A stretch of DNA of 64,000 nucleotides from Squalus acanthias (lineage: Eukaryota). Every line of letters starts with the position of its first letter. Position 1 is the first letter of the stretch. The translations under genes and the position numbers were made by a program. The DNA lies in the NCBI GenBank assembly GCA_030390025.1, contig CM059432.1, forward strand, positions 56,856,001 through 56,920,000, read 5' to 3'. A model generated the notes under the pieces. It saw only the letters and a program-made list of their open reading frames with translations, was not told where the DNA came from and searched no databases. Shown here one piece after another: positions 12,226 to 50,415 of the stretch.

Positions 12226-12781
12226 TTGCTCCTTATATTTTCGAACTAAAGCTTACCCTTTCACAGAGATACTTTGCACCAGACATTGCACGGGTTGCCC
12301 ACCATGCACTTGTCTTCTCTCCTACAACTGGAAAAACACCACACTGTTGGACTATTCAGGCTAAAACTACAGGACAAATTCATGTTGAAGTCATTTACAC
12401 AGAAGAATAAAAATTAGGTTTACAAAGAAGCCAACAAAATCAGAGGGAAATTAGTAGCACTAATGCTGATTTAAAAACAACCAAGATTTGGATCAGTCCA
12501 CAAGAACTTAAAAGTATTTTCTCCAGAACATGTTTCAAGTATAGTCCAATAAACTGAAAATGTGTTTGTATGTGGGTGTGGCAAATGTTCCTACTATCCC
12601 CACAGAGTCCAGTATTGCCTGAGGGATAGGGAGTTGGATCTGACTCAACCAACCGTTGTTTGTTCTGGATTGAGTTAACCTTTCTAAGGGCTATGATGTG
12701 GAGATGCCGGTGTTGGACTGGGGTGGACAAATGTGAGAAGTCGCACAACACCAGGTTATAGTCCAACAGCTTTATTTGAAA

Positions 12782-12818
12782 TCACAAGCTTTCGGAGCGC
12801 TGCTCCTTCGTCAGGTGA
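12782..12818 (-). ncRNA. Minimal type I hammerhead ribozyme motif
   Basis: Exact reverse complement of 12821-12857. Confidence 0.8.
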
Positions 12819-12820
12819 AG

Positions 12821-12857
12821 TCACCTGACGAAGGAGCAGCGCTCCGAAAGCTTGTGA
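12821..12857 (+). ncRNA. Minimal type I hammerhead ribozyme motif
   Basis: TCAC-CTGACGA-A-GGAGC(AGC)GCTCC-GAAA-GC-TT-GTGA: stem I, core, stem II, palindromic stem III AAGCTT. Confidence 0.82.
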
Positions 12858-12999
12858 TTTCAAATAAAGCTGTTGGACTATAACCAGCTGTTGGACTATA
12901 ACCTGGTGTTGTGCGACTTCTCACATTTCTAAGGGCTGAAAGAGGAGTTCAGTACCAAAGTAGGGAATGCAATGTTACAAGCATTGCCTAGTTTGAGTT

Positions 13000-14515
13000 T
13001 CAAGCACAAAGCTTCTGTGTGGGAGATTCTCTGAGTATACAGAGCGGGAGAGGCTGTGAGTATAAAGAGCGGAAGATTCTGTGAGTAAACAGCGTATTTG
13101 GTGAGTATTTCTCTTTTTTTCTCTAAACTTCGGCATTGGCTTAAATTAAGAGCTGTGATTATAGATTATAAACTATATATAGACAATTGAGTGATATTCC
13201 AAACCTTGAAAACCTAATTAGTTAAATAAAATACAATAGAAATGGCAGGGCAGGTGATGTGTTGCAGCTGTAGCATGTGGGAGCTGGAGGACCGACCAGT
13301 GTGATCCAGGCGACCACATCTGCAGTAAGTGTTGACAGCTCGAGGAACTTCGGCTCGGAGTTGATGAGCTGGAGTCCGAGCTTCAGACACTGCGATACAT
13401 CAGGGAGGGAGAAAGTTACCGGGATACTTTGTTCCAGGAGGCAGTCACACCCCTCAGGTTAAGTACTTCAAATCTGGTCCGTGGTCAGGGACAGGAGGGT
13501 GTGACTACAAGTGAGGCAGGTATGGGGATCCAGAAGGTAGCATTGGAGGAGCCTCAGCCATTGCACTTGTCCAACAGGTACGAGGTTCTTGCAGCCTGTG
13601 TGGACGAGAGCAGGGACTGCAGGGAGGATGAGCAAACTGACCACAGCACCGTGGCACAGGGGGCCATTCAAGTTGGGGGAGTAAAAAGAAATGTAGTAGT
13701 GGTCGGGGACAGTATAGTTAGGGGGATAAATACTGTTCTCTGCAGTCGAGAGCGTGAGTCCCGAAGGCTGTGTTGCTTGCCCGGTGCCAGGGTTAAGAAC
13801 ATCTCCTCGGGGCTGGAGAGGAACTTGGAGTGGGAGGGGAAAGATCCAGTTGTCGTGGTTCACGTAGGTACCAATGACATAGGTAGGACTAAGAAAGAGG
13901 TTCTGCTGAGGGAGTATGAGCAGTTAGGAGCCAAATTAAAAAAAAGCAGAACCACAAAGGTAATAATCTCTGGATTACTACCTGAGCCACGAGCAAATTG
14001 GCATAGGGTCAATAAGATCAGAGAAATGACTGTGTGGCTCAAAGATTGGTGTGGGAGAAATGGGTTTCGATTCATGGAGCAGGTTGGGCCTATACTCATT
14101 GGAGTTTAGAAGAATGAGAGGTGATCTTATTGAAACATACAAGATTCTGAAGGGGATTGACAGGGTAGATGCTGAGAGGATGTTTCCCCTCGTGGGGGAA
14201 TCTAGAACTAGGGGGCACAGTTTCAGGATAAGGGGTCTCCCATTTAAAACGGAGTTGAGGAGGAATTTCTTCTCTCAGAGGGTCGTGAATCTTTAGAATT
14301 CTCTACTTCAGAGAGCTGTGGAGGCGGAGTCATTGAATATATTCAAGGCGGAGATAGACATATACTTGAGTTACAGGGGAACCAAGGGTTATGTGGAGCG
14401 GGCAGGAAAGTGGCGTTGTGGCGAAGATCAGATTAGCCATGATCTTATTGAATGGCAGGGCAGGCTCGAGGGGCCGAATGGCCTACTCCTGCTCCTATTT
14501 CTTATGTTCTTATGT
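13000..14515 (+). mobile_element. CR1 5' UTR and ORF1 (zinc finger + SGNH esterase) joined directly to a CR1 3' end
   Basis: CCSCSMW..HICSKC, VVGDSIVRG, VHVGTNDIG, then an abrupt switch near 14078 to RLGLYSLEFRRMRGDLIE and a ttcttatg tail. Confidence 0.85.
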
Positions 14516-43764: not shown

Positions 43765-44033
43765 CAGTAGCAAAATACTGCGGATGCTGGAAATCTGAAA
43801 CAACAACAGAAAATGCTGGAAACACTCAGCAGGTCGATGACCCTTCGTCAGAACTGGTTCTTTCAAAAAGTGAGATAAAGGAAACCGGCAATACCTCAAC
43901 AGTTTAGCAATAGGTAAAGACTCTCCCCACTCTTTTTATGGTACTTCTGACGAAGGGTCATCGACCTGAAACGTTAATTCTGTTTCTCTCTCCATGACCT
44001 GCTGAGTGTTTCCAACATTTTCTGTTGTTGTTT
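43765..44033. mobile_element. Head-to-head Penelope pLTR pair, non-coding
   Basis: Inverted arms homologous to the 3' ends at 49776-49910 and 61735-61834; 14-bp TSD CAGATTGGGAAATA (43751-43764, 44034-44047). Confidence 0.82.
43943..43979 (+). ncRNA. Minimal hammerhead ribozyme motif, stem I eroded
   Basis: CTGACGA-A-GGGTC(ATC)GACCT-GAAA-CG-TT. Confidence 0.7.
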
Positions 44034-49775: not shown

Positions 49776-50415
49776 AATAGCAAAATACTGCGGATGCTGG
49801 AAATCTGAAATAACAACAGAAAATGCTGGAAACACTCAGCAGGCCAGGCAGCATCCATGGAGAGAGAAACAGAGTTAACGTTTCAGGTCTGGGACCCTTC
49901 ATCAGAACTGGAAAAGGCTAGAGATGTAACAGATTTTAAGCAGGTGCAGAGGCAGGGAGGGTGGGTGGGGGAGGGGAGGAAGGAACTGAAGGAACATTCT
50001 ATGCTAAGGTAGGAGGCAGGAAAGATTAAAATGTTGCAAATGGGGATGGCAAAATCATACAGCCTGAAAAATGGGGGCAGGGGTTATAGTCTGAAATTGT
50101 TGAACTCGATGTTGAGTCCAGTAGGCTGTAAAGTACCTAATCGAAAGATGAGGTGCTGTTCTTCGAGCTTATGTTGAGCTTCATTGGAACAATGTAAGAG
50201 GCCGAGGACAGAGAGATCAGAGTGGGAGTGAAGCGGAGAATTAAAGTGACAGGCGACCGGAAGCTCGGGGTCACCCTTACGGACTGAACGGAGGTGTTCC
50301 GCAAAGCGGTCACCCAATCTGCATTTGGTCTCCCCAATGTAGAGGAAACCGCATTGTGAGCAGCGAATACAGTATACTAAATTGCAAGAAGTCATTGTAG
50401 GTCTCCTCTACATTG
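49776..50415 (-). mobile_element. Penelope-like element 3' fragment (GIY-YIG C-terminus + pLTR) with short terminal inversion
   Basis: LVYCIRCSQCGFLYIGETKCRLGDRFAEH..GLNIEF; hammerhead in the 3' region; 50400-50415 inverts 50336-50351. Confidence 0.9.
49873..49909 (-). ncRNA. Minimal type I hammerhead ribozyme motif, canonical core
   Basis: AGTT-CTGATGA-A-GGGTC(CCA)GACCT-GAAA-CG-TT-AACT. Confidence 0.82.

Follow-up and report, generated by a model that had tools for sequence, protein, structure and literature searches.

Mini-palindromes of a Penelope-like element in Squalus acanthias and their possible origin by cDNA run-off at a capped RNA 5' end

In the standard anatomy of Penelope-like elements (PLEs), inverted, 5'-truncated pseudo-LTRs (pLTRs) are accompanied by a one-sided tail of 30–40 bp (Craig et al. 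2021, PMC8557442; Arkhipova et al. 2013, PMC3846280). In canonical EN+ PLEs, the pLTRs lie head to head, a tail is optionally found at one end, TSDs flank the insertion, joins occur at microhomologies, and a palindrome forms at the inverted junction. In rotifers, the pLTRs carry a TATA box and a TCACT initiator, and the head-to-head palindromes were read as products of self-priming on antisense RNA, with a sense template left open (PMC3846280). More recently, the protein of PAc, a Poseidon PLE of Anolis carolinensis, was found to cut and extend both target strands in vitro, with two adjacent internal RT starts defining the tail and uncut RNA as the main template (Frangieh et al. 2024, PMC11167929). 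Hammerhead cleavage was dispensable in that system, and the main text of the paper does not deal with run-off at the 5' end or with the formation of inverted insertions.

The minimal hammerhead ribozymes of metazoan PLEs have a short stem I, an extra base between positions 9 and 10.1, a G10.1-C11.1 pair, and palindromic positions 15.2–16.2 (Cervera and De la Pena 2014, PMC4209133). As reported there, they do not cleave as monomers and cleave at a low level as dimers, and dual motifs on opposite strands, about 100–700 bp apart, were linked to truncated PLEs. Non-LTR retrozymes are short and non-coding, carry type I hammerheads, and plausibly use PLE machinery; they are arranged as direct tandem repeats, from which monomers are excised between hammerheads on the same strand and then circularised (Cervera and De la Pena 2020, PMC7229834).

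The insertion analyzed here lies in a 64,000-nucleotide stretch of the S. acanthias genome (hereafter the window). It is a PLE remnant and one of thousands of small back-to-back PLE leftovers in this genome (Table 1). An earlier note, made from the sequence alone, had described it as a palindromic insertion flanked by a 12-bp TSD, with inverted arms around a 2-nt loop that are identical apart from an 18-bp tandem duplication. All of these features are present. Within the 64-kb window, the 12-bp direct repeat is found only at the two flanking positions. Comparison of the insertion flanks with the family loci gave no match and no empty allele among them, and the TSD is read from the direct repeat. 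With the duplication set aside, the arm at 12729-12818 is the exact reverse complement of that at 12821-12928; the duplication itself has a single match in the genome, which is the window copy. The insertion as a whole is not symmetrical, as the 36 bp at 12693-12728 lie outside the arms and had been overlooked. These 36 bp can be identified as a Penelope tail because the minus-strand match to the parent element extends through them: from 12821 to 12693, the minus strand is 97.7% identical to +1..+129 of the parent copy L191 and breaks off after the AT of its start codon. Here and below, +1 denotes the initiator A of the parent, that is, the A of its TCACT-like initiator. The boundaries proposed for arms and TSD stand as well, except that 3 bp (TTT) are common to the end of the right arm and the beginning of the right TSD.

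Table 1. Features of the palindromic insertion, in window coordinates
Feature	Position	Strand	Remarks
Left TSD	12681..12692	+	12 bp, direct repeat
PLE tail	12693..12728	-	36 bp; parent 5'UTR +94..+129, up to the AT of the ATG of the parent ORF
Tailed arm	12729..12821	- (sense)	parent +1..+93; first base is exactly the initiator A (12821)
Minimal type I hammerhead	12782..12818	-	predicted cut between 12786 and 12785
Apex loop, 2 nt	12819..12820	.	exact apex in 463 copies genome-wide
Tail-less arm	12821..12925	+	parent +4..+90, contains the private duplication
Minimal type I hammerhead	12821..12857	+	stem I 12821-12824/12854-12857, stem II 12833-12837/12841-12845; predicted cut after 12853
G preceding +1	12822	-	parent has C/T there; putatively cap-derived; part of a 2-nt overlap common to the other arm
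18-bp tandem duplication	12868..12903 (12868-12885/12886-12903)	+	private to the window copy
Right TSD	12926..12937	+	first 3 bases also match parent +91..+93, a microhomology at the tail-less end

The insertion was said to contain no ORF. This is correct in substance, although a TTG-started open frame of 108 aa crosses the left arm on the minus strand; it is an in-frame reading of the 5'UTR into the flank, and the ATG of the element is cut after AT. Promoter, start codon, and ORF sequence are all absent from the window copy. Whereas its head-to-head pLTRs, one-end tail, TSDs, microhomology join, and palindromic junction are those of canonical EN+ PLEs, it differs from published EN+ PLEs in that the whole insertion consists of two pLTR heads (233 bp) and is present in thousands of copies. 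TSDs of 8–10 bp are given for the rotifer examples (PMC3846280), compared to mostly about 12 bp here. The 257-nt region folds with a predicted energy of -184 kcal/mol (z = -25.3; none of 200 shuffles was as stable). Rfam matches to two plant miRNA families were rejected as identities since both fall below the gathering score (MIR7807, 64.7 bits, cut-off 90; MIR396, 36.8 bits, cut-off 80), and they are explained by the perfect hairpin. The search at E<=1 also returned one weak sRNA match outside the insertion. For annotators, this means that such hairpins score as miRNA or MITE-like but are PLE debris.

The assignment to Penelope had been proposed together with a search for an ORF-bearing parent. 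Both were borne out, as arms and tail match such a parent in the same genome and two intact copies (L191 and L192) were found. The route led from a tail-anchored copy with the 3' part of the ORF (L115) via 140 scored matches to 14 with long open frames. Both intact copies consist of a pLTR, an 892-aa ORF starting at an ATG, and a pLTR with tail. As in canonical EN+ PLEs, the parent pLTR contains a TATA box and a TCACT-like initiator (PMC3846280). While the ORF of PAc starts inside the hammerhead and its RT starts lie inside the ORF (PMC11167929), the shark parent has its hammerhead in the 5'UTR and a tail reaching up to the ATG. The L191 protein matches Pfam RVT_1 (E=1.3e-8, 35.2 bits, cut-off 29.6), so that a single ORF with RT is present in the parent and absent from the window copy. 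Searches of Pfam and PDB returned no match to a GIY-YIG endonuclease. By eye, motifs of the VY..YIGET type are found near the C terminus of L191, which we take to be those of the endonuclease. A cysteine cluster between the RT and these EN-type motifs, also seen by eye, gives the protein a Neptune-like appearance; a Zn-finger-like motif between RT and EN is the criterion given for the Neptune clade (PMC8557442).

Exact matches to the 40-nt hammerhead region number 12,865 in the 3.7-Gb genome, and those to the arm-tail junction 17,689. Direct pLTRs flanking the ORF and partial tandems, which are typical of EN+ PLEs, are found in L191, L192, and an array on contig C2. In this array (G000:C2:211213571-211223010), four ORF-start junctions are spaced by approximately 3,138 bp, corresponding to apparently full-length units in head-to-tail order. 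Contigs from 4 of 24 runs, most of the 24 being only presumed to be of RNA origin, were aligned to the parent; they showed no intron-like joint in its 5'UTR and carried no information on transcript starts, ends, or strand.

The insertion itself is ordinary for a Penelope-rich genome. Its interest lies in a signal seen across the population of copies, namely a sharp stop at the initiator and an extra G, in both arms. The 30 best BLAST loci all have the apex of the window copy and were rejected as a population sample; because this set was selected for the apex, we used a census anchored in the tail instead. It comprises 90 of the first 100 tail-junction matches, all from one 14-Mb stretch of one contig (C1, 0.8-14.4 Mb), and its exact-match patterns favour young copies. 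An inverted arm, in EN+ PLEs a 5'-truncated pLTR beside the direct one, is adjacent in 68 of the 90 copies, distant in 5, and absent in 17. One copy (L111) with the same flanks as another (L110) was dropped, leaving 67 two-arm insertions.

In 15 of the 90 unselected copies, the tailed arm begins at +1, the largest single position, and 13 of these 15 have a G before +1, a position occupied by C or T in the parent. Of the 67 two-arm insertions, 35 have a longer arm ending at +1..+5. Among the 60 distinct upstream contexts that contain a TATATAT motif, its start lies 30 nt above +1 in 46 and 31–32 nt above it in the other 14, although the sequence in between varies among the subfamilies of read-through copies. 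Genome-wide, the base before +1 is G in 3,112 matches, A in 366, and C/T in 19,191, the latter being mostly read-through. As a control, the +2 boundary was counted by eye in the first 100 of 2,786 rows, which show no G excess (G 21, T 31, C 48); partner arms seen from the opposite strand confound this comparison. A near-full-length copy (L195) also begins at G+1, and two head-to-head pairs among the first 100 G-type rows, identified by position only, have arms that both start with G+1 (C1:43394121-43394168 and 80769881-80769930). Of 30 G-type loci examined by script, 12 were flagged as having a G that the other arm does not template, and nine were left after removal by eye of a CpG variant (L205), a double apex (L206), and an ORF-side overlap (L227). 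Seven of these nine have TG at the joint, as snap-back would add. In the remaining 21 of the 30 loci, the G is readable from the other arm or ambiguous.

At the full-length 5' ends of L1 and SVA, an untemplated G is the accepted sign of cap copying (PMC4859970). Considering this precedent, the TATA spacing, the pile-up at +1, and the extra G, we infer that transcription from a TATA/initiator promoter in the pLTR begins at +1 and gives a capped RNA. The same picture would result if RT or repair were biased towards adding C at a run-off end. The available sections of PMC8557442 and PMC3846280, which favour an antisense template, do not describe such a G, and searches of the literature, which covered few subscription papers, turned up nothing on a cap-derived G or on run-off at the 5' end in PLEs. 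If the reading is true, more than 3,000 copies with an extra G at one fixed TATA/initiator start would identify capped sense RNA as the template.

Other joints also involve +1. In 5 of 30 ORF-start loci (L252, L258, L262, L267, and L273), +1 is joined onto parent +199..+209, about 70–80 nt into the ORF, with a G at the joint in two. The position hints at internal priming at a third site or at the 3' end of a short RNA, and the joins look as a template jump from an RNA end would make them. A second recurrent junction consists of the other arm cut at +20, an untemplated TG, and then +1; it was found in 4 of the 30 G-type loci (L215, L216, L221, and L223), across different loop II subfamilies, and also in L157, L158, and L175. 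Furthermore, in L213, L222, and L303 (the same locus as L213), G+1 is immediately preceded by a short direct repeat of the opening bases of the arm, as though the end of the cDNA had re-annealed a few bases back on its template.

The two arms were then compared with each other. The tail-less arm extends further 5' than the tailed arm in 29 of the 67 two-arm insertions and the reverse holds in 22, indicating that neither arm is a simple copy of the other. Both arms share the +53 allele in 59 of 64 scored pairs, and their loop II alleles differ in 12 of 36 (one of the 12 being a parsing artefact). Since the 5' and 3' pLTRs of L195 differ at loop II, the templates can be either both pLTRs of a single transcript or a pair of transcripts from a single donor. 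For the copies sharing the exact apex of the window insertion, we used a set of 31 (the window copy and the first 30 of 463 matches), in which the tailed arms end at +126..+138, compared to mostly +86..+95 for the tail-less arms.

Judging from these sequences, the insertion in the window is probably a dead-on-arrival product in which the first ~130 nt of a PLE RNA were inserted twice, head to head, likely made by priming at both nicks and run-off at the capped 5' end. The GIY-YIG/RT protein would cut both strands about 12 bp apart, and cDNA would start at two internal sites, about +129 and +90, one from each nick. With the 5' pLTR of a sense, mostly uncut RNA as template, the cDNA would run off at +1 and gain a C opposite the cap. 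Its end may then snap back on itself (2 bp, 2-nt loop) and be extended, or it may anneal to the second cDNA via microhomology. A snap-back extension would be complementary to the second cDNA and would therefore resolve to exactly the apex seen in the window. Otherwise, the ends would join at other microhomologies, which would make this apex one of the commonest of many junctions. In L1 twin priming, two cDNAs are reportedly primed from two target ends and cover adjacent, non-overlapping parts of one RNA. That model shares with the present one the two target ends and the microhomology join; in contrast to L1, a perfect palindrome arises here because both cDNAs cover the same ~90 nt. The two internal starts would correspond to the adjacent RT starts that define the tail of PAc (PMC11167929).

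For PLEs in general, we lean towards the view that they routinely make cDNAs resembling strong-stop products: primed internally from both nicks, run off at the capped 5' end of sense uncut RNA with the cap copied, and sealed as mini-palindromes after snap-back or annealing. Thousands of such fossils would then map the transcription start to the base, and head-to-head palindromes would form without an antisense template. Architecture, head-to-head pLTRs, and opposite-strand minimal hammerheads were already known; new is the mechanistic reading of the population signal. It can be tested in vitro with an enzyme class that can now be purified.

The perfect hairpin could also come from a single priming event, in which cDNA runs off at +1 and copies itself by fold-back, the variable apexes being later deletions at an unstable centre. 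We regard this as unlikely. The tailed arm does hold +1 in 26 of the 31 exact-apex copies, but among the 67 unselected insertions +1/+2 is reached by 14 tail-less arms, a frequency close to that of tailed arms rather than a ratio of 4:26. Microhomologies of 1–6 nt at many junctions are what deletions would leave; however, deletion cannot yield insertions in which both arms keep +1/+2, as seen in the two pairs with G in both arms and in 8 of the 30 G-type loci, where the other arm also reaches +2. Similarly, the arms usually carry the same alleles, including rare ones (L076, L077, and L090), yet their differences at loop II and sometimes at +53 require two template copies. The TG additions do indicate real snap-back. 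Taken as the general route, single fold-back is thus weakened.

The earlier note had left a choice between an extreme truncation product and a self-contained retrozyme/MITE-like unit, adding that variable apexes would speak against a propagating unit. They do vary: the 67 unselected two-arm insertions have 54 different junctions. Although the exact apex of the window copy is common to 463 copies, these compare with 17,689 tail junctions, and in the census it appears three times (four when one mutated copy is counted), with three other junctions also found three times each. The truncation branch was right, with the difference that the 5' stop is sharp instead of random. It is therefore very unlikely that the exact-apex palindrome is a non-autonomous unit spreading from one or a few masters. 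That all 30 best BLAST loci have the layout of the window copy would fit such a unit, but that set was selected, and exact-apex copies fall into several +53 allele classes (A/A 12, G/G 9, T/T 1, and A/G 1 in 23 scored). Their tail is on one side in 26 of 31, on the opposite side in 4, and absent in 1, and some tails extend into ORF sequence, to +138. Exact TSDs of 8–15 bp were found in 24 of the 31 (modal length 12 bp, in 12 of 31), the other 7 having only 3–6 bp exact repeats under a no-mismatch rule. Since junctions, alleles, and tail side vary among copies, the exact apex was made repeatedly from different donors. The 3.1-kb parents could provide protein in trans, and pLTRs alone are described as having mobilised a host gene in a rotifer (PMC3846280), but the palindrome has no TATA box, and its opposite-strand hammerheads leave no monomer to excise. 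MITEs have terminal inverted repeats at both ends, a fixed TSD length, and uniform copies; here, a 36-bp tail lies outside the arms, on either side across copies, and TSD length and junctions vary. In place of the same-strand hammerheads in direct repeats of retrozymes (PMC7229834), the insertion has one hammerhead per strand, in inverted orientation, and is a piece of the PLE itself.

Self-priming on antisense RNA from a bidirectional pLTR promoter, the published reading of palindromic PLE junctions (PMC3846280), is highly improbable here, for although the TATA sequence reads both ways and antisense transcription is compatible with the strandless contig data, it predicts neither the hard stop at the sense initiator with its extra G nor the jumps from +1 onto +199..+209. 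Head-to-head geometry would need no antisense RNA, because first-strand cDNA is itself antisense and its snap-back would suffice. Priming at both nicks with run-off at the capped 5' end thus bears on whether the inverted ends of PLEs form on a sense template or on an antisense one as discussed in PMC3846280.

The claim of a minimal type I hammerhead on each strand holds at the level of sequence, with cleavage being predicted only. Both motifs have the core CUGANGA / GAAA / NUH, stems I and II, an extra base after A9, and palindromic 15.2-16.2, and thus correspond to the minimal metazoan PLE hammerheads, including the short stem I and the G10.1-C11.1 pair (PMC4209133). Unlike the dual motifs described there, the two abut, with 10 bp between their cores, inside one perfect hairpin. 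Rfam hammerhead families gave no match at E<=1 in the window, perhaps since these models do not cover motifs that lack helix III. Among the loci compared, stem II retains at least 5 pairs in most variants despite loop-length changes, and stem I covaries from TCAC/GTGA to TTAC/GTAA. A subfamily of a few thousand arms (L281-L310) has C at the cut base (CUC for CUU) and keeps the NUH rule. The persistence of stem II, the covariation of stem I, and this variant indicate selection on the hammerhead fold in the parent.

Within the palindrome, forcing the plus-strand hammerhead costs a predicted 62 kcal/mol (-118.3 versus -180.1). This agrees with the suggestion that a rod-like transcript would lock the ribozyme, and the hammerheads of the window copy are predicted to be passengers in any read-through hairpin RNA. 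Cleavage as a dimer in cis is not expected because the two motifs are never in sense on one RNA. The cut site (+37) was considered as a second 5' stop and rejected, as there is no strong pile-up of boundaries. There are 4,076 matches with a non-T base at this site; of 30 such loci, 25 are a read-through subfamily variant and 5 are boundaries, two of which are explained by GTGA microhomology. The missing pile-up would be in line with uncut RNA as the main template in vitro and with the dispensability of hammerhead cleavage for PAc (PMC11167929).

The hammerhead had also been called distinct from that of an AACGTT family elsewhere in the window, and motif comparison confirmed this. Two AACGTT-family hammerheads with stems GGGTC/GACCT lie at 43800-43990 (+) and about 49870-49910 (-). 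The copy near 43947 has an inverted partial arm ~90 bp upstream, which is a head-to-head layout in a second family.

Downstream of the palindrome, which ends ~85 bp before them, three 25-bp repeats are found at 13021-13095 (+). The region 13021-14300 further contains a 226-aa frame (13429-14109, +) followed by a fragment. By eye, both resemble parts of a CR1-type LINE, the frame its esterase-type ORF1 and the fragment its RT end.
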